From contig JBBSUB010000001.1 of assembly GCA_038235345.1 (NCBI GenBank), positions 1 to 57,289 on the forward strand: a stretch of DNA of 57,289 nt, written 5' to 3'. Position 1 is the stretch's first letter, and each line of letters opens with the position of its first letter. Positions 3,336 through 28,771 of this stretch are shown piece after piece. This DNA is from Chitinophagales bacterium. GTDB taxonomy: Bacteria; Bacteroidota; Bacteroidia; Chitinophagales; Chitinophagaceae. The translations under genes were made by a program, and so were the position numbers. A model generated the notes under the pieces. It saw nothing but the letters and a program-made list of their open reading frames with translations. It was not told the DNA's origin and ran no database searches.

Positions 3336-6203
3336 ATGACCAATAGCACTACAACCACCAAAAAAAAATCCGCCTCCAAGAAAGAAGTTTCAAATAATAT
3401 CTTCATCAAAGGTGCGCGTGTACACAATCTTAAGAATATTGACGTTGAAATTCCCCGCAATAAATTTATTGTGGTTACAGGCGTTTCAGGCTCAGGAAAA
3501 TCATCGCTAACAATAGATACCTTATTTGCCGAAGGCCAAAGAAGATATGCTGAAAGTATGAGTGCATATGCCCGACAATTTATGGCACGTATGAATAAAC
3601 CTGATGTAGATTATATCAAAGGTCTTTGTCCGGCTATAGCCATCGAACAAAAAGTAACCACAAAAACTCCCCGTTCTACTGTAGGTAGTATGACGGAGAT
3701 CTATGATTATTTAAGATTGCTCTTTGCCAGGATCGGTAAAACGATTTCACCTGTATCCGGAAGAGAGGTAAAAAAAGATGACGTAGAAGATGTTGTGAAA
3801 GCCATTAATCAGTTAGAGAAGGGAGATAAAGTGTTGATGCTGGTAGATTTTAAAAAATCAGCAAACCGTGATGTAAAAGAGGAATTAAATATTCTGATGC
3901 AAAAAGGGTTCTCCCGGTTAGCGGCAACGTCCGGGTCCGTTAAAGGCGTGGAAATAGAGGTTCTCCGTATTGAAGATTTGCAGGAGATGGAAAATCTGGA
4001 TTCCTACCTGGAACATCGCACATCCTATGTGCTTGTGGACAGGCTTGTGGTTAAAGATTTTGATGAAGATGATATTCATCGGATATCCGACTCCGTTAGT
4101 ACTTCTTTTTACGAAGGCGAAGGAGAATTACTACTGGTCATTAACGATAGCAAAAAACTTCATTTTTCAAATAAATTTGAACTGGATGGACTGCGGTTTG
4201 AAGAACCGGTTCCCAATTTATTTTCATTTAATAATCCTTATGGCGCATGCCCGGTTTGCGGTGGCTTTTCACTGGTATTAGGAATAGATGCGGATCTTGT
4301 TATCCCGGATAAATCACTGAGTGTTTATGAAAACGCCATTGCTCCCTGGCGGGGAGAAAAACTGGGCCAATGGAAAGAAAGACTTATTAAAGCGGCCGGC
4401 CGTTTCGATTTTCCTATTCATAAACCAATTATTGATCTTACATCAGCTCAATATAATTTACTATGGACCGGGAATGAATATTTTGGCGGTTTAGATGAGT
4501 TTTTTAAAGAGGTGGAACAGAATCTGTACAAAATCCAATACCGCGTTTTACTTAGCCGTTTCCGTGGAAGAACTACATGCCCGGAATGCCATGGATCCAG
4601 GCTTAGAAAGGAGGCATTGTATGTAAAAGTGGCCGGTCACAATATTGGTCAGTTGGGAGATTTGCCGGTGAAAGATCTTCAAAAATGGTTTAAAGAAATA
4701 GAACTATCAGAATTTGATCAGGAGGTTGCTAAAAGAATTCTCATAGAAATACATACAAGACTGGCTGTGCTCGTGGAGGTAGGGTTGGGGTATCTGACTT
4801 TAAACAGGTTGGCAAACAGTCTTAGTGGAGGGGAAAGCCAAAGAATTCAGTTAACGCGCAGCCTGGGTAGTAACCTGACGGATTCTCTTTATATCCTGGA
4901 TGAGCCTTCTATTGGTTTACACTCCAGGGATACAGAAAACCTGATCGGAGTTTTAAGAAATCTTCAATCTCTGGGCAATACAGTTATAGTAGTGGAACAT
5001 GATGAAATGATGATGCGTAAAGCAGATCATATTATTGATATGGGACCTTTAGCCAGTCATCTCGGCGGAGAAGTGATTGCTGAAGGCGATTATGATTCCA
5101 TTATCAAAAACCCGGACAGTCTTACAGGGAAATACCTGAAAGGGGAGTTTAAAATTGAACCGCCTAAACATATACGTAAATGGAACCGATCCATAAAAGT
5201 GGAAGGAGCGAGGCAGAATAATTTAAAGAATATTGATGTCGTTTTTCCCCTGAATGTTTTGTGTGTTGTTTCCGGTGTGAGCGGAAGTGGAAAAACGACC
5301 CTTGTGAAACAAATTCTTTCTCCTGCATTAAAAAAGATGAAGGGTGAGGTGGCAGAAAAAATCGGTCTTCATAAAAGTATATCAGGCGATACGGATGTAA
5401 TCTCCCAAATTGAAATGGTGGACCAGAATCCCATTGGAAAATCTTCGAGAAGTAACCCGGTAACCTATATAAAAGCCTATGATGAGATCAGGGATTTCTA
5501 TAGTAAACAACCTCTCAGCAAAATTCGTGGATACCAACCAAAACATTTCTCCTTTAACGTGGATGGTGGTCGTTGTGATGCATGTAAAGGAGAAGGGGAG
5601 CAGGTAGTGGAAATGCAGTTTCTGGCAGATGTACACCTGCTGTGTGATGTATGCGGAGGGAAGCGGTTTAAGGATGAAGTCCTTGAGGTTAAATTTAATG
5701 GGAAAAGTATTTATGATGTGTTGGAAATGAGTGTGGATGAAGCAATTGTTTTCTTTGAAAACGGGCAATCTGCCGGAAAAAAGAAAGATGATTCAGGAGA
5801 GGTGATTGCAAAGAAATTGCAACCTCTGAGTGATGTGGGTTTAGGCTATATCAAACTTGGACAATCGTCCGGTACATTATCCGGCGGTGAAGCGCAAAGG
5901 GTAAAACTAGCATCATTTCTTGGCAAAGGAAAAGGGCAGGGGAACCTATTGTTTATTTTTGATGAACCAACCACCGGTCTTCACTTCCATGATATAAAAA
6001 AATTATTGACCTCTTTTAATGCGCTTATCGAACAAGGGCATTCCATTATCGTGATAGAGCACAATACCGATGTAATTAAATCTGCTGACTGGGTCATTGA
6101 TCTTGGTCCTGAAGCAGGGGATTTAGGAGGGAATCTTGTTTATGCAGGCGTGCCTGAAGGATTGAAAAAAGTAAAGGAAAGTTATACAGGGAAGTATTTA
6201 TAA
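3336..6203 (+). CDS. uvrA: Excinuclease ABC subunit A
   Basis: [12 protein letters not shown], two Walker A motifs ([16 protein letters not shown]), LSGGESQR and LSGGEAQR signatures, CxxC zinc sites. Confidence 0.97.
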
Positions 6204-20521: not shown

Positions 20522-21178
20522 ATGACAGATACAGATAACATGGATGAAAATTTACAAGAGGAATCAGCTCCTGAGACCGATGTAAGTATTGAATCTACTC
20601 CGGCTGCTGCTCCTGCACCGGAAACTAAATGGTACGTGCTAAGGGTAGTAAGTGGCAAAGAGCGGAAGATTAAAGAATATCTTGATAAAGACATCATCAG
20701 AAACGGATGGGATAAATCAATTCTTCAGATATTTTTACCGGTTGAGAAAGTGTACAAAGTAGTTTCGGGTAAAAAGGTGATGAGAGAAAGAAATTTCTAT
20801 CCCGGTTATATTATGATGGAGGTGTTAGATGGAGAACTTACAGAAGCAATGATTCAGCATCTAAGTAACGTAACGAATGTTATGCACTTTCTTACAGATG
20901 GGAAAGGCTCGAGGGGAAATATTATCAGCTTGCGTAAAGCGGAAGTAAATAAAATGCTTGGTAAGGTTGATGAAATGTCTGACGCAGGTGGTATGACGAT
21001 GAGTGAACCATTTATTGTTGGTGAAACCATTAAGATTATCGACGGACCATTTAACGACTTTAATGGTGTAATTGAAGAAGTAACAGATGAAAAGAAAAAA
21101 TTGAAAGTTCAGGTAAAGATATTTGGTCGCGCTACTCCTGTTGAGTTAAGTTATATGCAGGTAGAAAAATTAGTCTAA
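20522..21178 (+). CDS. nusG: Transcription termination/antitermination factor NusG with acidic N-terminal extension
   Basis: KWYVLRVVSGKE, FYPGYI, KOW domain IIDGPFNDFNG...KIFGRATPVEL. Confidence 0.97.
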   Translation: MTDTDNMDENLQEESAPETDVSIESTPAAAPAPETKWYVLRVVSGKERKIKEYLDKDIIRNGWDKSILQIFLPVEKVYKVVSGKKVMRERNFYPGYIMMEVLDGELTEAMIQHLSNVTNVMHFLTDGKGSRGNIISLRKAEVNKMLGKVDEMSDAGGMTMSEPFIVGETIKIIDGPFNDFNGVIEEVTDEKKKLKVQVKIFGRATPVELSYMQVEKLV

Positions 21179-21199
21179 AATATTTTTTAAAGTAGTTAC

Positions 21200-21229
21200 A
21201 AACCGGTTCAGAAATGAGCCGGTTTTTTT
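21200..21229. terminator. Intrinsic terminator after nusG
   Basis: aaaCCGGTTCAgaaaTGAGCCGGtttttt. Confidence 0.8.
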
Positions 21230-21277
21230 GTGTACTAATTTCTGTAGTTATTGAAGATGATTATCTGTTTGCTTAAT

Positions 21278-21652
21278 CTAAGTTTCCTTCCTCTTCACCA
21301 ATAAATACCAATCATTTTCCAAAGGAAGATATCCCAGGTCATACACGAAATAATAGATATTACCTTTTTTATTCGTGTAGGTATGTGTTATATATTTAAA
21401 TAAAAATCCTTTTTCCAATAGTCTTTCCTGGTTCGTTTTTGCTATTTCCTCTTCCCCGTTAAAAAAACTTTCCAGGATGCGCCTGTTCCTTCCAAGAGTA
21501 TTATTGATATTTCTTACCAGGTTGTTCGTGTCGGATTTTAAAAGATTATTGTAATTATTCCGGCAAAAATCATTGCAGAATTTCTTGTCAGTCCGGCCTT
21601 TTACCGGTTTTTTGCAGTCGATACAAAGTCTTGGTGATGTTTTGGCTATCAT
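21278..21652 (-). CDS. Uncharacterised basic Zn-ribbon protein (CxxC-x12-CxxxC), candidate DNA-binding regulator
   Basis: CIDCKKPVKGRTDKKFCNDFCRNNYNN followed by a helical Asn/Arg-rich segment. Confidence 0.8.
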   Translation of the reverse strand: MIAKTSPRLCIDCKKPVKGRTDKKFCNDFCRNNYNNLLKSDTNNLVRNINNTLGRNRRILESFFNGEEEIAKTNQERLLEKGFLFKYITHTYTNKKGNIYYFVYDLGYLPLENDWYLLVKRKET

Positions 21653-21696
21653 ATTGAATGATTTAAAAGATATTGGAAGATACGTTTTTATATTTA

Positions 21697-21741
21697 TGTG
21701 TACAACCGTTTACAAACGGTTATACACAACTATAAACGGTT
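21697..21741. promoter_or_regulatory. 32-bp near-perfect palindrome plus extra half-site (putative operator)
   Basis: TGTGTAcAACCGTTT-ac-AAACGGTTaTACACA, then ATAAACGGTT at 21732-21741. Confidence 0.75.
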
Positions 21742-21867
21742 AAATGTGGAATAGGAATAAATCTATAGACATCTTTGAGTTGTTGAAAAATTGACGTATT
21801 CTAAACTCAACACAAAAAATATTTTATACCAGCTCATTCAAAAGTCTTGGGCACAAAACAAAAAATT

Positions 21868-22224
21868 ATGAACGCATTAAAAAACAAAGTACAATTGATC
21901 GGAAATTTAGGAAATGATCCTGAAATTAAAACAATGGAAAATGGCCGGAAAATGGCACGTTTCTCCATCGCAACAAATGAAGGCTATAAGAATTCAAAAG
22001 ACGAATGGGTAGATAATACCCAATGGCACAATCTGACTGCCTGGGGGCCTGTGGCTGAAAATATTGAAAAAAACCTGTTCAAAGGAACCGAAGTATTCAT
22101 TGATGGTAAACTGGTAAATGGACATTACCTGGACAAAGAAGGCAATAAAAAATATTTTACGGAGGTTCAGGTAAATGATTTTTTATTGGTTGGGAAAAGA
22201 AGCCCGGTAATGGCTTCAGAATAG
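21868..22224 (+). CDS. ssb: Single-stranded DNA-binding protein, short form lacking the acidic C-terminal tail
   Basis: NKVQLIGNLGNDPE, FSIATNE, TQWHNL, KGTEVFIDGKL OB-fold motifs; ends without DDLPF. Confidence 0.92.
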   Translation: MNALKNKVQLIGNLGNDPEIKTMENGRKMARFSIATNEGYKNSKDEWVDNTQWHNLTAWGPVAENIEKNLFKGTEVFIDGKLVNGHYLDKEGNKKYFTEVQVNDFLLVGKRSPVMASE

Positions 22225-22279
22225 ATCATGCAGGCATTTTGGTCTCAATTCATCATTCCCTGTTAACAAAAGTCTTTCT

Positions 22280-22307
22280 AATAAAGGCGGGCAGGTCCGC
22301 CTTTATT
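22280..22307. terminator. Intrinsic terminator after ssb
   Basis: aataaaGGCGG-gcaggt-CCGCCtttatt. Confidence 0.75.
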
Positions 22308-22569
22308 TCCACCATCTTATCCGTTACTTTAAAATATTGGAGTAATTTTAGAAAAACTTATTCGCGGCCACTTTGTATACGGATAATTTCTGGTCAACCT
22401 ATAAATTAAATCCCTTGCTCCAAAGTGGTATAGAGAGTAACTTTGGAGCAAACTAAAAAGCATCATCTAATTATTTTCCAGGTATTCTTTAAGCTGGAAA
22501 ATATCCTGATTTTGTAAAGAAATTGAAATCTTAGCAGAAATATTTTAGCCATCAGTAGAATTGATAAAA

Positions 22570-25056
22570 ATGGAAATCATGGAGAATTTTTTTACCATAG
22601 AGCGCAATGAGGTGTTTGATCTCGCTTACAGGTTTGTAACAGAAACGAGTGAGAATATCTTTTTGACCGGGAAGGCCGGGACAGGAAAAACAACTTTCTT
22701 AAAATTTCTGAAAGATCATTGTGCAAAAAATATCATCGTTGCTGCGCCTACTGGCGTAGCGGCTATTAATGCTGGCGGCGTTACATTACACAGTTTATTC
22801 CAGTTGCCCTTTCATCCATTTATTCCTACGGCAAGAAGCAAAGAAGATTTGTTGAGTAAATTGAAATACAACGGGCAACGACAACAACTCCTACGGAAAA
22901 TGGAATTATTGGTTATTGATGAGATAAGTATGGTGCGCTGCGATGTTATAGATGCAATTGATACTATTTTGCGGTCGGTACGCCGGAAACACGATCTTCC
23001 ATTTGGAGGAGTACAGTTGCTTTGCATTGGAGATTTATACCAGTTACCCCCTGTTGCTCCGAGGAATGATTGGGGCATCTTGCAAGAATATTATCCATCG
23101 CCTTTCTTCTTTGATAGTTATGTTATCAAGGAACAAATGCCCTTACTGATTGAGCTTACAACTATTTATCGGCAAAAGGAACATTCTTTTGTGAATCTGC
23201 TGAACAAAGTGCGTAATAACTTTATGGATGCAGATGATTTTGAAGATTTGCATATGCGGTATTTCCCGGATTTCAGACCGGATGAAGAAGAGAAGTTTAT
23301 AACTCTTACCTCCCATAATAACCAGGCGGATCAAATCAACGCCCGTGAATTACATAAGTTAATTGCACCTTCCACAATTTATAAAGCAGTTATAGATGGA
23401 GAATTTGCAGAAAATAATTATCCGGCAGAAGGAGAATTAGTTTTGAAGGTGGGTGCCCAGGTTATGTTCCTTAAAAATGATGTTGTTAGTAAAAGGTATT
23501 TTAACGGAAAAATAGGCGTGGTAAAGCAATTATTAAAGGATGAAATTATCGTTGATTGTGATGGCGAAGATATCTACGTAATGCCGGAAACCTGGGAAAA
23601 CAATCGTTATGTCCTAAACAGGGAAGACGGAAAACTGGAACAGGAAAACCTGGGATCATTTACTCAGTTCCCTTTACGGCTTGCCTGGGCTATCACGATT
23701 CACAAAAGCCAGGGATTAACTTTTGAGCGTGTAATGATCGATGCCGGTGCGGCCTTTAGCAGCGGACAGGTATATGTTGCCTTAAGTCGTTGTACAAGCC
23801 TGGAAGGAATTGTGTTGCTTTCAAAAATCCCGGCAGCAGCCATATATAGTAATGAAAATGTGGTAAAAGGTCAGCAATCGCTGACACATAAAGGATCACT
23901 GGCCGAACGATTTGCCGGGGCAAGGCAAATATTTACGCAGCAACTTTTAGAAGAAATATTTTCTTTTAAAGAGGTTAGCCACCTTGCCCAATTATTACAA
24001 TCTCAGGTAAAGGCGCATCAATATAAATTAAATACGGAAGCCGTAGAATGGGCAACGAACTTAAATAATAGCCTTATAACAGATGAACGGGTCGGATTAA
24101 AGTTCTCCTTTCAGATTGCAGAATTAATGCGTGATGAACCTGAAATTGAAAAGAATGAAGCATTACAATTGCGCATTAATGCTGCTGCCAGCCATTTTGA
24201 ACCAAAATTCACAAACTATTTCAAAGCAATTAAAAATCATCCATTGGTTACGGAACATCGGGAAGTAGCCACAGAGATCAATAATACCTTAGCTCAATTA
24301 ATTCTTTCTGTTTATACCGTCAATTATTTTCTGGATTATTGTAAAGAACTGTTTTCGGTTACAGAATTTTTGAAACATAAATTAAAATTTGCTACTCCAA
24401 GAATAAATATAACCTGCTATGCCAGTGGAAAAAGCCAGGTGTATTCTGATGTGGCCAATGGGGAATTATACGAAACCCTCAAACGTTGGCGCGATATGAT
24501 TGTGGAGGAGAATTCAATTCCGATTTTTATGGTTGCTTCCCATGCATCTCTGAAAGAAATTGCGGAATACCTTCCTCTGACTAAAAAAGATCTGATGAAG
24601 ATCGGTGGGTTTGGAAAAGCAAAAGCGGATAAATACGGAGATGATATTTTAGAGACAGTACAGGATTATTGTGCCAGGCATGAATTGGGAAGTAATATAT
24701 CTGCGAAAGAATCTTCTCCAAAAAAAGAACGGAAAGAAAAATCTTTGGAAGAAAAAACACCGACCAATATTTTTTCTTTCAATTTATTTAAAGAAGGAAA
24801 ATCTGTCGCAGAAATTGCTAAAGAAAGGAATCTTGCGATTACAACTGTCGAAGGACATTTATCATGGTTTGTTGGAAATGGTGATGTTGATATAAACGAA
24901 TTAGTTTCTTCGGAAAAACAATTATTGATAAAAGAGGCGATTTCAATTAATGGCCGATCAAGTACAAAAACTTTAAAAGATCATCTTCCGGAAGATGTTA
25001 GTTATGGAGAAATAAGAATGGTGATGGCTCTTGAACAGGACGGGGCGAAACCATAA
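22570..25056 (+). CDS. PIF1/RecD-like SF1 helicase with HRDC and C-terminal HTH domains
   Basis: GKAGTGKT, APTGVAA, IDEISMV, GDLYQLPP, HKSQGLT, YVALSR; HRDC LKRWR...KIGGFGKAK..KYG; HTH SVAEIAKERNLAITTVEGHL. Confidence 0.92.
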   Translation: MEIMENFFTIERNEVFDLAYRFVTETSENIFLTGKAGTGKTTFLKFLKDHCAKNIIVAAPTGVAAINAGGVTLHSLFQLPFHPFIPTARSKEDLLSKLKYNGQRQQLLRKMELLVIDEISMVRCDVIDAIDTILRSVRRKHDLPFGGVQLLCIGDLYQLPPVAPRNDWGILQEYYPSPFFFDSYVIKEQMPLLIELTTIYRQKEHSFVNLLNKVRNNFMDADDFEDLHMRYFPDFRPDEEEKFITLTSHNNQADQINARELHKLIAPSTIYKAVIDGEFAENNYPAEGELVLKVGAQVMFLKNDVVSKRYFNGKIGVVKQLLKDEIIVDCDGEDIYVMPETWENNRYVLNREDGKLEQENLGSFTQFPLRLAWAITIHKSQGLTFERVMIDAGAAFSSGQVYVALSRCTSLEGIVLLSKIPAAAIYSNENVVKGQQSLTHKGSLAERFAGARQIFTQQLLEEIFSFKEVSHLAQLLQSQVKAHQYKLNTEAVEWATNLNNSLITDERVGLKFSFQIAELMRDEPEIEKNEALQLRINAAASHFEPKFTNYFKAIKNHPLVTEHREVATEINNTLAQLILSVYTVNYFLDYCKELFSVTEFLKHKLKFATPRINITCYASGKSQVYSDVANGELYETLKRWRDMIVEENSIPIFMVASHASLKEIAEYLPLTKKDLMKIGGFGKAKADKYGDDILETVQDYCARHELGSNISAKESSPKKERKEKSLEEKTPTNIFSFNLFKEGKSVAEIAKERNLAITTVEGHLSWFVGNGDVDINELVSSEKQLLIKEAISINGRSSTKTLKDHLPEDVSYGEIRMVMALEQDGAKP

Positions 25057-25233
25057 ACTTCAAACCATAATAACGGGGTTTTTAAAGTTAAACCGGAACT
25101 TCCAGACCAACATTCAGATCTTTTCTTCAATTTCTTCAATGAATAAAGTTATCAGCACGGAAGTTTTTATGAAGGAACAAAGATTTATAATGCTCTTTTA
25201 TAACAAAGCCCTTTTTGAATAAATCATTTAAAC

Positions 25234-25676
25234 ATGAAAAAAGGGATCGTTTATATTTTTGTCTTATCCCTGCTAATAAGCAGTTTTTCTACTTCTGCTC
25301 AGGAAAGTGTTGTTTCAGAAAGTGAATAACCTTTTAGCATCCGGGAATACATTGCCACTCACTTTAAAGGAAATAAAATTATCAAATGCGAAGAGGAAAA
25401 AGAAGAAAGTGCCAAATCATACGAAATAAAATTGGATCATGGTATTAAACTTGAATTCAATACAAAAAACCAAATAAAAGAGATCAATACAAAAAACCAA
25501 ATTGCCGGTTAGTGTTATTCCTCCGTCTATTCTTTTCTTTCTTATGTAAATGCACCCATTCTGGCAAAGTGATTTTGGAATGGGTGCTGGAAAGTAAAAA
25601 CCAACAAGTGAAACTCCACAACGGACTGGAATTGGAATTCAAAATAAGTGAAAGGTTTTTAAAAATAGGCGAATAA
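25234..25676 (+). pseudogene. Disrupted PepSY-like/DUF2874 (BLIP-like) secreted protein
   Basis: Reads MKKGIVYIFVLSLLISSFSTSAQESVVSESE*PFSIREYIATHF...YEIKLDHGIKLEFN, then frameshifted LPVSVIPPSIL and QQVKLHNGLELEFK; premature TAA plus frameshifts. Confidence 0.8.
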
Positions 25677-25697
25677 TAAATCCCAAAATCTATTGGG

Positions 25698-26042
25698 TTA
25701 CCTTCTGCCTTTTACTTTCATTAATACAGCCATCATATCACCGTTTTTTAGAACGTCTTTTTTATTGTTCCAGGCCACCATCGCCTCTTCAAGGCCTTTA
25801 TTAAGATCTAATACATTTTTTTTCCTGTTTATATTCAGGCGACAGTTATTCACTGTTTCTTCATAAATTAAAACAGACTTATCTGTGTAGAATCGAATAA
25901 TAGTACTTTTCTTGTTGTGAACATTACTTTCCAATACCCAGAAACCTTCTGCCGGAATAACGTTTTTCTTTTGAGCATTTATGGAGCTGCTTATCAATAA
26001 GAATGTGCAGACTGCAATAATGAATTTGAGAGAATTTTTCAT
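25698..26042 (-). CDS. Small secreted hypothetical protein
   Basis: Signal peptide ending INA-Q; GFWVLESN and IRFY motifs; divergent from the lytS/lytTR pair. Confidence 0.75.
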   Translation of the reverse strand: MKNSLKFIIAVCTFLLISSSINAQKKNVIPAEGFWVLESNVHNKKSTIIRFYTDKSVLIYEETVNNCRLNINRKKNVLDLNKGLEEAMVAWNNKKDVLKNGDMMAVLMKVKGRR

Positions 26043-26276
26043 CGTTTATAGTTTAAAAGAGTTTACATTTAATATAGAAATCTAAAATTAGTATCAAATA
26101 AAATCCGACGGTAAAACAATAGTCCAAAAGAGCTTTGCGATCTACAGAAACTCAATATTTTGCGTATTATAGATATTGAGCGGTTTTCAGGCTATTCATC
26201 TTCTAAATCATTGTTTTCGTCGACCGAATATTGAAAACAATAGAAGGCTTTTTAATTTTGTAATACAAAAGTCAAA

Positions 26277-27392
26277 ATGCAGCCACTTTCAACGCAAAAT
26301 TTCCTGGATTGGTTTTTAAAACAAAGAATTCTGCTTCACGTATTATTCTGGACGGTGGTGTTAATTTATTTTGTTCTGGCTTACGAGCAAAACGGTCAGT
26401 TTAAATTAGAATTATACAGATCAATGGCATTTCTTCCAAATCACATGTGGCTTGCATATAGTTTTATGTATTTTCTTATTCCAAGATTTCTTTTAAAGAA
26501 TAAAATTTTAATATTCTTCGGGTGTGCACTTCTGCTCATTGGTGTCAATATGTATTTTTCTTACCTCATCAATTTTAAATTTCTTGCATCAGTATTTATA
26601 CAGAAAAAAACCTGGTGGACGCTGGGTGGAGCATTGTTGGGCTGCCTGACTATTCTTGGCATAGCGGTTTCAATAAAATTATTAAGATATTGGGCAAAGG
26701 AGAAAAGGCAAAATATATTGGTACAACAGGAAAAGACAAATGCTGAATTGCAGATGCTTAAATCACAGGTGCATCCACATTTTCTTTTTAATACGCTGAA
26801 TAATATATATTCACTTTCCCTTGAGAAATCCAATCTGGCACCCGTCATCATTCTAAAATTATCAGACCTGCTGAGATATATGTTATACGAATGTAACGCC
26901 CCAATGGTCTCTCTAAGTAAGGAATTAGAAATGATGAACCATTATGTAGATCTGGAAAAATTAAGATATGGAGACAGGCTGGATGTGAGTAAAAGTTATT
27001 CCGGTGAAATAGAAGGTAAATTGATACCACCTCTATTATTCCTGCCATTATTAGAAAATTGTTTTAAGCATGGAACCAGTAAACAGATTGATCAAAGCTG
27101 GATAAGTATATATCTTCATGTGGAAGACGATATTTTAAACTTAAAATTGATTAATAGTAAGGTGAAAGATGAAAACCTTCCTATTGTGCCCGGAGGTATT
27201 GGATTGCATAACGTGGAAAAAAGGCTGCAACTTTTGTACGGCGAAAAATACAATTTGAAATTATCGCCTGCTGAAGAAACGTTCACTCTTTCTCTTACGA
27301 TGCCTATAAATGACCAGTATGGAGCGACAAACATGGAATGGACAAATGTAAAATCTGGAAAATATGAACATCAAATGCCTGTTAGTGGATGA
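26277..27392 (+). CDS. LytS/YehU-family sensor histidine kinase
   Basis: 4 TM helices, LKSQVHPHFLFNTLNNIY, ENCFKHG, GGIGLHNV. Confidence 0.94.
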   Translation: MQPLSTQNFLDWFLKQRILLHVLFWTVVLIYFVLAYEQNGQFKLELYRSMAFLPNHMWLAYSFMYFLIPRFLLKNKILIFFGCALLLIGVNMYFSYLINFKFLASVFIQKKTWWTLGGALLGCLTILGIAVSIKLLRYWAKEKRQNILVQQEKTNAELQMLKSQVHPHFLFNTLNNIYSLSLEKSNLAPVIILKLSDLLRYMLYECNAPMVSLSKELEMMNHYVDLEKLRYGDRLDVSKSYSGEIEGKLIPPLLFLPLLENCFKHGTSKQIDQSWISIYLHVEDDILNLKLINSKVKDENLPIVPGGIGLHNVEKRLQLLYGEKYNLKLSPAEETFTLSLTMPINDQYGATNMEWTNVKSGKYEHQMPVSG

Positions 27393-28068
27393 TGAACCTC
27401 CCGCCTTAAAGATTTTGGAACATTATATTGAAAGTATTCCCAATCTTGAGTTAGCTGGAAAATGCTCAAATGCTTTTGAGGCTATGAAAGTACTCAGTGA
27501 GCAAAATGTGGATGTAATGCTATTAGATATTAGAATGCCTTTACTTCTCGGTACGGAATTTCTAAGGACGCTTAAAAATCCTCCAAAAGTGATTTTTACG
27601 ACTGCGCACAAAGATTATGCATTACAAGGATTTGAGCTGGAAGCAGTTGATTATTTATTAAAACCCATTTCATTAGAAAGATTTTTGAAGGCCATTGGAA
27701 AATTGTTTATAATGCCGGTGCCTTTCCCTGTTAAGGAGGAGGAAGGCCGTACAGGGAATGATTTTCTTTTTTTCAGGGTGGACCGGAAAATGGTGAAAGT
27801 AGTTTTGGAAGAAATATTGTTTGTAGAAAGTTTAAAAGACTACATTAAAATAGTACAAAGAAGTCAAAAGACTCTTTTGGTAAAGCAATCCATAAGTTCT
27901 TTAGAAGTTATGCTTCCCGAAAACCGTTTTGTTCGGATTCACAGGTCTTTTATTGTTTCAATAAATAAATTGACAGCTTTTACAAATCATGAAGTGGAAA
28001 TTGGTGAGTTAACCATTCCTATAGGAAAAAACTATTTGGATAGGATAAGCAGATTATCCGGTATCTGA
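27364..28068 (+). CDS. LytTR-family response regulator
   Basis: LVDDEP, LLDIRMP, FTTAH, DYLLKP receiver motifs; FVRIHRSFIV LytTR motif. Confidence 0.95.
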   Translation: MNIKCLLVDDEPPALKILEHYIESIPNLELAGKCSNAFEAMKVLSEQNVDVMLLDIRMPLLLGTEFLRTLKNPPKVIFTTAHKDYALQGFELEAVDYLLKPISLERFLKAIGKLFIMPVPFPVKEEEGRTGNDFLFFRVDRKMVKVVLEEILFVESLKDYIKIVQRSQKTLLVKQSISSLEVMLPENRFVRIHRSFIVSINKLTAFTNHEVEIGELTIPIGKNYLDRISRLSGI

Positions 28069-28236
28069 TTATGATTTTAGGTAAAGCATTTAAAATCAAG
28101 AAAATAATGTCAGGTCATAAGGAATTTTGATGAGGGAAAGAAGATCGAATTATTTAAGCTTAAACCTTCGAAATTGGGCCCTGAATATTTGGCTATTTTT
28201 TTTTAAAAAATAATTGTTATAACAAATTCTTTCACT

Positions 28237-28327
28237 ACTTTTGCACTCCCAAAAAAGTTCTTAAAGGAATTCATTTGATTGGGAGTCCCGAGCATGTCGA
28301 CGGACGTTAACACCAAAAATTTAAATT
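28237..28327 (+). promoter_or_regulatory. rplK promoter (-7 TACTTTTG) and 5' leader, possible L1 autoregulatory site
   Basis: TAnnTTTG match; leader contains ctcccaa...ttgggag pairing and a gtcc..ggac stem. Confidence 0.5.
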
Positions 28328-28771
28328 ATGGCAAAAGAAGCAACAGGCTTTGTCAAGCTCCAGGTTAAAGGAGGACAAGCCAATCCAGCACCTCCGGTAG
28401 GTCCTGCACTCGGTTCAAAAGGAATCAACATCATGGAGTTCTGTAAGCAGTTTAATGCAAGAACCCAGGATAAACAAGGGAAAATTCTTCCCGTTCTCAT
28501 TACAGTTTATGGCGATAAATCATTTGATTTTGTCATCAAGACACCTCCTGCTGCAGTTCAGTTAAAAGAAGCTGCTAAAATTAAGGCGGGTAGTAAAGAG
28601 CCTAACAGAGATAAAGTGGGGAAGGTATCATGGGCTCAGGTTGAGGAAATCGCCCAGGATAAAATGGAAGACCTGAATGCGTTCAGCAAAGAAAGCGCTA
28701 TGAAAATGGTTGCAGGTACAGCACGCAGTATGGGTATTTCTGTAACCGGAAAAGCTCCTTGGGATAACTAA
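28328..28771 (+). CDS. rplK: 50S ribosomal protein L11
   Basis: [33 protein letters not shown]. Confidence 0.99.

Follow-up and report, generated by a model that had tools for sequence, protein, structure and literature searches.

Activators of the PhoB/OmpR type bind tandem 10–11 bp repeats that replace the -35 element. Integrons consist of the integrase IntI with attC cassettes and are under LexA control. The -33 element, TTTG, lies 19–21 nt before the -7 box. The -7 consensus of Bacteroidetes is TAnnTTTG (PMC9723704, PMC7641319). A non-canonical LexA regulon of Bacteroidetes has the motifs GGA-N5-TCC as well as CTAA-N5-TTAG, with ssb and radC as predicted members in some species (PMC8565304). 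PafBC and DriD are LexA-independent activators (PMC7617703), and SsbB is the competence SSB of Bacillus subtilis (PMC3384303). No description of the module presented below was found in a literature search that lay mostly outside subscription journals.

The locus is in a 57,289 nt stretch of DNA from a Chitinophagales bacterium (here termed the window), whose host belongs to the Chitinophagaceae; among named records, the nearest loci are from Ginsengibacter and Ferruginibacter. A basic protein (pI 9.5) with cysteines C10/C13/C26/C30 in the arrangement CxxC-x12-CxxxC is encoded divergently from a short ssb gene across a 215 bp spacer, as an earlier sequence-only reading had described it. The features are listed in Table 1. 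The module of Zn gene, ssb and the array of 10 bp units in the spacer is real and conserved, and its comparative properties are those of an undescribed transcription factor with a tandem 10 bp operator, which is the likely interpretation. The probable role of the Zn protein is that of a transcription factor acting on ssb. That it binds the array is proposed here with good confidence, and that it is a sequence-specific factor which also activates the ssb promoter with moderate confidence. Comparative evidence thus upholds the earlier suggestion that the Zn protein controls ssb, but not the palindrome as its operator, the CGNR label of its finger or the wide regulon that went with it.

Table 1. 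Features of the Zn-ssb locus and its surroundings, in window coordinates
Feature	Position	Strand	Remarks
Terminator-like hairpin in the gap from nusG to the 3' end of the Zn gene	21200..21225		scanner call on + strand
Gene for Zn-knuckle / long helix / small alpha-beta protein, candidate transcription factor	21278..21652	-	124 aa
Predicted -7 box, Zn gene promoter (TATCTTCC)	21675..21682	-	26 nt from last array CG
Degenerate flanking array units	about 21693-21702 and 21743-21752		TG at 21747
32 bp palindrome of the sequence-only reading (two adjacent array units plus flanks)	21697..21728
Array core, four units	21703..21742		CG cores 21707, 21717, 21737; degenerate unit 21727
Predicted -7 box, ssb promoter (CATCTTTG)	21770..21777	+	33 nt from CG 21737; 23 nt from degenerate unit 21747
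Short secondary SSB gene, member of a distinct ssb clade	21868..22224	+	118 aa from ATG; PF00436, E 1.6e-30
GC-rich hairpin after ssb, possible ssb/helicase terminator	22282..22305	+	by eye; scanner made no call
PIF1-like helicase with HRDC and HTH_40 domains	22561..25056	+	syntenic within family

Homologs of the Zn protein number 2382 in the 90% set and 1825 in the 50% set. The family is present in 24 of 41 relatives, in 57 of 301 genomes of the phylum (every one from Bacteroidia, the class of the window) and, by profile search, in 137 of 201 Bacteroidia genomes; these tallies take in three unpublished genomes (G023, G410 and G468), on which nothing else presented here depends. A search of viral contigs gives no locus. 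The CGNR-type label is not borne out, as zf-CGNR (PF11706) has no match in the window protein at E up to 1 and none in 125 homologs at E up to 0.01. The only Pfam match of the window protein is to the treble clef DUF2116 (PF09889), at 14 bits against a gathering cut-off of 26.8. At E up to 0.01, 67 of the 125 homologs match DUF2116 (3.5e-06 for the best), in the knuckle region only. The two share an N-terminal CxxC...CxxxC knuckle, but the window score is sub-threshold and the C-terminal 85 residues have no family match in Pfam or NCBIfam. A sequence search of solved structures gives nothing under E 3.5, and a Foldseek search of the PDB and viral structures with the Zn-protein model gives no match at E up to 0.001. 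The family has neither a passing family model nor a solved relative.

In the AlphaFold model of the Zn protein (pLDDT 92), the knuckle is followed by a helix of 35 residues and by a small alpha/beta domain, which reaches 95 when modelled alone. The modelled knuckle and helix are basic. The top VIA-align rows are mostly winged-helix domains, at weak scores (Z at most 5.0, rmsd 2.6, 61 aligned residues). The model has only two helices where these rows align, and the likeness may represent a common arrangement. A homodimer model scores 0.46, and the best control 0.04; of solved pairs, 20 of 30 attain the homodimer mark, and of single chains 1 of 23, but these counts apply only roughly to the alignment and the zinc used here. 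Contacts agree to at least 95% between runs, with pLDDT at least 84. The predicted interface is formed by residues 42–53, 84–92 and 104–105 and includes the near-invariant L53, T89 and Y104. Formation of a homodimer is supported as a prediction, and the basic knuckle-helix ends would stay free in it.

The 32 bp near-perfect palindrome that the sequence-only reading placed in the spacer is present. Its arms (21697–21711 and 21714–21728) are complementary at 14 of 15 positions, and none of 300 dinucleotide shuffles of the spacer equals it. Its core, AACCGTTTnnAAACGGTT, has a single occurrence in the 4.8 Mb genome. The third AAACGGTT half-site is also present, at an offset of 20 bp from the second (21714 vs 21734) and not of 21 bp as had been given. 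Comparison with 80 close relatives shows that the palindrome is not a conserved operator. A divergent ssb gene lies within 600 bp in 65 of the 80 close loci (several others end early), and the exact core is kept in 5. The right arm in 75 anchored spacers reads CGCT in 30, CGGT in 19, CGAT in 14 and otherwise in 12. A single palindromic operator is ruled out, in that perfect symmetry varies and a tandem 10 bp array persists instead. This conserved element consists of 4–6 tandem units with the consensus TAnnCGnnT(A/G) and a 10 bp period, each unit being roughly its own reverse complement. Any two neighbouring units form a near-palindrome, which explains the palindrome first noticed.

A matrix of the array was trained on 75 units from 25 Zn-adjacent spacers. 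The window array scores 42.8, the next site in the genome 21.3 and shuffled genomes about 20–22; the maximum in 1000 shuffles of the spacer is 14.2. With flexible spacing the window scores 24.5 and the next site 11.6, with nulls up to 13.8. By exact core, fixed-period matrix and flexible-period chain alike, the window array is the sole site in its genome. Since the remaining sites are at null level, the genome-wide regulon envisaged earlier is not visible. In a pattern scan of 80 genomes, one-mismatch matches are mostly background. Among the examined matches listed, strong intergenic arrays accompany ssb or Zn/integrase loci, apart from four in unexplained places. These four arrays (loci L224, L228, L229 and L235) have no adjoining ssb or Zn gene; that of L224 is 800 bp before an integrase, and those of L229 and L235 are in cassette-like regions.

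Both -7-like boxes which the sequence-only reading had set on either side of the palindrome are present. Automatic assignment of a -7 box at 15–32 nt was obtained for 40 of 60 array-bearing ssb promoters, with the window among the other 20. In 33 of the 40 the last CG is exactly 23 nt before an nAnnTTTG box. The ssb-proximal unit of the window is degenerate, with TG in place of CG. This 23 nt spacing puts the last array unit on the predicted -33 position, as activator sites do, and in the ssb promoters listed that position is occupied by an array unit and not by TTTG. Both the candidate operator and the predicted geometry of the promoter are thereby specified at single-base level. Between array and Zn-side -7 box the distance is anything from 8 to 61 nt, as would fit autorepression or an incidental overlap. 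The published start-site table of Flavobacterium psychrophilum has no row for the probable ssb ortholog or the probable Zn gene.

In the mechanism proposed here, the dimeric Zn protein would bind the 10 bp units between its own gene and ssb and activate ssb from -33. One dimer may occupy each unit or each two neighbouring units, the latter corresponding to the palindrome, and successive dimers would be aligned one helical turn apart. The ssb-proximal unit would stand in for the -33 element and aid RNA polymerase binding, and loading over the far end of the array may damp the Zn gene's own promoter. The resemblance to PhoB/OmpR sites is in the row of sites at helical-turn period (10 bp) at a fixed distance from the predicted core promoter. 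Unlike these activators, the Zn protein has no receiver domain by Pfam or NCBIfam, no kinase and no sequence match to them, and its N-terminus is the Zn knuckle; palindromic array units and a symmetric predicted dimer are further differences. The OmpR C-terminal domain is among the structures with a weak, winged-helix-like similarity to the Zn protein (Z 3.8, rmsd 3.4, 62 aligned).

LexA-independence of the module, as suggested earlier, is consistent with its lack of the known Bacteroidetes LexA boxes, there being no CTAA-N5-TTAG in the window and, by inspection, no GGA-N5-TCC in the 215 bp spacer. The window genome has CTAA-N5-TTAG boxes before ORFs that resemble recA, dnaE2 and a LexA-like repressor, as named from their N-termini. 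Such boxes are at C155:7555, C27:1602 and 1626, C180:2871 and 2894, C162:6339 and C24:10028. Judged from these motifs, the genome's LexA-like SOS regulon is separate from the Zn-ssb module. Both would control genes for DNA handling, but the Zn module has another motif, another protein and one array per genome.

Expression of a probable ortholog is documented in Flavobacterium. F. psychrophilum THC0290_0087 is a 111 aa ssb divergent from a 115 aa unknown gene, followed by yeeZ and pepO (PMC9723704). The order is that of our locus L130, and from order and length only this pair is probably the module described here. In the conditions of PMC9723704, which include no genotoxin, the ssb gene changes by +2.61 in stationary phase, +3.41 in water, +1.85 on blood, +1.12 with peroxide, -1.04 with dipyridyl and -1.24 in plasma. 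For the probable Zn gene, THC0290_0088, the changes are +0.7, -0.05, +0.81, +0.12 and -0.12 in the first five of these and +1.58 in fish plasma (PMC9723704). The probable ssb ortholog ranges from 6.4 to 12.3 log2 and the housekeeping ssb is nearly flat, dinB is up in plasma (7.4 to 10.1), where ssb drops, and recA and radC are outside the ssb expression cluster (PMC9723704). The 18 members of this cluster consulted, out of 52, comprise IS4 transposases, uptake genes and unknown genes; dprA and comEC are not named in the searched supplement of PMC9723704. A DNA-damage trigger, one of the switches considered in the sequence-only reading, is unsupported: expression of the probable ssb ortholog goes with stationary phase and starvation and not with dinB. 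This one expression set points to an input from stationary phase or starvation that acts after translation, rather than to a plain SOS-like switch. The set does not fit simple activation through the amount of protein, as the probable Zn gene is up and ssb down in plasma, and ssb is up with the Zn gene flat in water; it would best fit a post-translational control linked to stationary phase or starvation. Activation without a change in regulator level, as with PafBC and DriD, would suit the flat expression of the probable Zn gene. The Zn protein differs from these in having no WYL/WCX domain match (Pfam and NCBIfam, and 125 homologs in Pfam) and a tiny, local target set.

The same data bear on the sign of control. 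A Zn protein that binds the array as a repressor, covering the -33 region of each of the two divergent promoters until a signal frees it, is unlikely. The array overlaps the -33 position of both promoters, the opposite changes in plasma would suit repression and co-occurrence of the genes suits either sign, but the ssb spacing is fixed to the base with an array unit in place of TTTG, and both genes are up in stationary phase. Activation of ssb is the preferred reading.

The window SSB ends in SPVMASE, without an acidic DDLPF tail. In a tree of 132 ssb rows it belongs to a short secondary clade (69 rows, support 0.987; clade counts made by hand) apart from the housekeeping clade, in agreement with the earlier view of a tail-less secondary paralog. 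The short secondary SSB coexists with a tailed housekeeping SSB. It is in this respect like SsbB, a short secondary SSB besides the housekeeping one, but some array-bearing members are acidic-tailed. The window genome has no second array. Array-bearing ssb genes with acidic LPF tails are found in L122, L212, L213 and L236, and since that of L122 is in the housekeeping clade, absence of the tail does not define the module. Short ssb genes occur in tandem pairs in L297, L299 and L368; in L297 and L368 the first gene of the pair has the array and the second has none.

The array follows the presence of the Zn gene. Among short-clade ssb genes of Zn-positive genomes, 55 of 63 have an array score of at least 17 (39 of 47 when rows used in training are set aside), genomes with a distant Zn gene included, and among those of Zn-negative genomes none of nine has an array. 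Zn-negative means here no match to the Zn-protein profile, and a short-clade ssb was seen in at least 9 of 82 such genomes among the best loci. Six of the Zn-negative genes are in the tree, at four places, with scores of 3 or less; the three further copies, absent from the tree (two are partial), score -2.9 to 0.1. The eight Zn-positive rows under 17 are two in G137, those of G025 and G328, the second gene of a tandem pair and three extra copies. Four extra ssb copies in G129 and G181 score 1.0–13.0. Of the 63 rows outside the short clade, 61 have scores no higher than 7, and the two exceptions face a Zn gene. Related genomes in these counts are not independent. Arrays also accompany Zn paralogs that face an integrase without a divergent ssb, so that the Zn gene is the common factor and, in the loci compared, is the sole element common to all array contexts. 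A third factor lost together with the Zn gene and the array could produce the same distribution.

These counts also bear on a reading in which another factor reads the array and the Zn protein, under common regulation with SSB or the integrase, is their partner in single-stranded-DNA work. It is improbable. Where the Zn gene is far off in the genome the array remains with ssb, and the separated Zn gene usually has none of its own; the Zn protein has no clear match to a DNA-binding fold, and phage HNH proteins have related knuckles. Another reader would not account for the loss of the array in all nine Zn-negative cases, for a spacing that shifts with the Zn subclade or for a Zn gene that is divergent to two unrelated types of partner.

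The second type of partner is a tyrosine recombinase. These integrase-linked Zn paralogs were overlooked in the sequence-only reading. Most second Zn copies, which are more distant, face a tyrosine recombinase (11 of 15 loci in one set and 11 of 20 in another). In three Zn subclades, taken from a quick tree, all 23 loci face an integrase and the spacers hold CG-centred units. The unit period is 10 bp in 55 of 77 intervals from 21 ssb-linked loci, 11–13 bp in 17 of 17 intervals from an integrase clade of 13 loci, and 10 bp in 9 of 10 from another integrase clade. The period could follow the Zn subclade or the integrase instead, three clades being few. In the 24 integrase loci listed, the promoter spacing is 23 nt in 7 and 33–34 nt in 4, with a loose box in AT-rich DNA. 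Zn paralogs would use a like device for these recombinases. Elsewhere, in L026 and L162, the divergent partner of a Zn paralog is a distant ssb with a gene for a TnsA-like endonuclease after it, and the array is degenerate, and in L170 a Zn paralog faces a gene for a RadC-N protein. Distant Zn homologs in L029 and L030 directly follow excisionase-like HTH genes and an integrase, without an array.

The Zn-linked recombinases keep their catalytic residues and have no long IntI-type insertion relative to the Xer-like protein of the window. Their best models are integron integrase and XerA, and TIGR02249 reaches at best 224 bits, in two stretches, against a cut-off of 265. Behind some of these recombinases lie single genes in the same orientation, set apart by 70–140 bp hairpin repeats with AAC...GTT ends. 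The repeats are found in L166 (four copies), L169, L165 (2086–2222 and 3092–3222), L161 (2303–2424 and 4028–4148) and L357. Under a strict scan, attC-like repeats turn up in 5 of 18 integrase loci and in 1 of 18 ssb loci, and L161 and L165 have further ones. The folding z of the repeats is from -0.26 to -3.23. Rfam on 13 integrase-side loci yields only tRNA and a piece of a group II intron. The intact tyrosine recombinase and, in some loci, single genes between attC-like hairpins resemble an integron; the differences are the sub-threshold integrase without the IntI insertion, cassettes that lie downstream of the integrase in the same orientation, and the presence of a divergent Zn gene of its own where an integron has a LexA box. 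These loci look integron-like and are not classed as integrons. The literature search described above, mostly outside subscription journals, found no description of Bacteroidia cassette arrays behind integrases without the IntI insertion. Two more tyrosine recombinases in the window genome (C244:274–1140 and C16:2–763) are 31–38% identical to the Zn-linked integrases; one is split and one is cut by the contig end, and neither has a Zn gene or array.

It is very unlikely that the array is a structural or recombination site (hairpin DNA, an att-like site or an insertion target) and not an operator, since its self-complementary units, the folding of the window copy (z -2.85), adjoining integrases and insertions of IS1595-type elements at the same 8 bp are set against the fixed spacing to the -7 box, cassettes on the integrase side away from the array, variable perfect symmetry and the lack of a nearby integrase at most arrays. 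Control of ssb by the Zn protein through the array would, if true, provide a regulator, an operator and two types of target for a family in about two thirds of the sampled Bacteroidia genomes. A secondary SSB and integron-like recombinases would then be controlled outside the known SOS response, with a bearing on the timing of cassette shuffling. It is a tentative and rather doubtful extension that the Zn protein is the founding member of a Bacteroidia factor family of new architecture, a LexA-independent stationary-phase or starvation switch for ssDNA recombination that drives a dedicated SSB and, via paralogs with retuned spacing, overlooked integron-like integrases.

The insertions in the array are by IS1595-type elements with differing ends and cargo, at one position, with duplication of GTTTATAG. 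They split the GTTTATAG copies between ssb and the Zn gene in L038 (609–617), L048 (2105–2113) and L108 (562–570), each with Zn-side ends. Similar right element ends are found in L033 and L049, and the same 8 bp of the array are thus an insertion hotspot. L049 also has a second, inverted copy of the Zn gene (4286–4690) in an inserted element upstream of the resident copy.

The PIF1-like helicase gene is within 1.5 kb after ssb in 55 of 57 loci of the close family, and in just 5 of 30 wider loci, all five of the family of the window. It has no array of its own and is separated from ssb by a hairpin in the window, but read-through from ssb is possible, and the helicase may at most be a candidate member of the module, as suggested earlier. 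In the window (21178–28328), the Zn-ssb-helicase block and a two-component pair break the usually contiguous nusG-rplK cluster.
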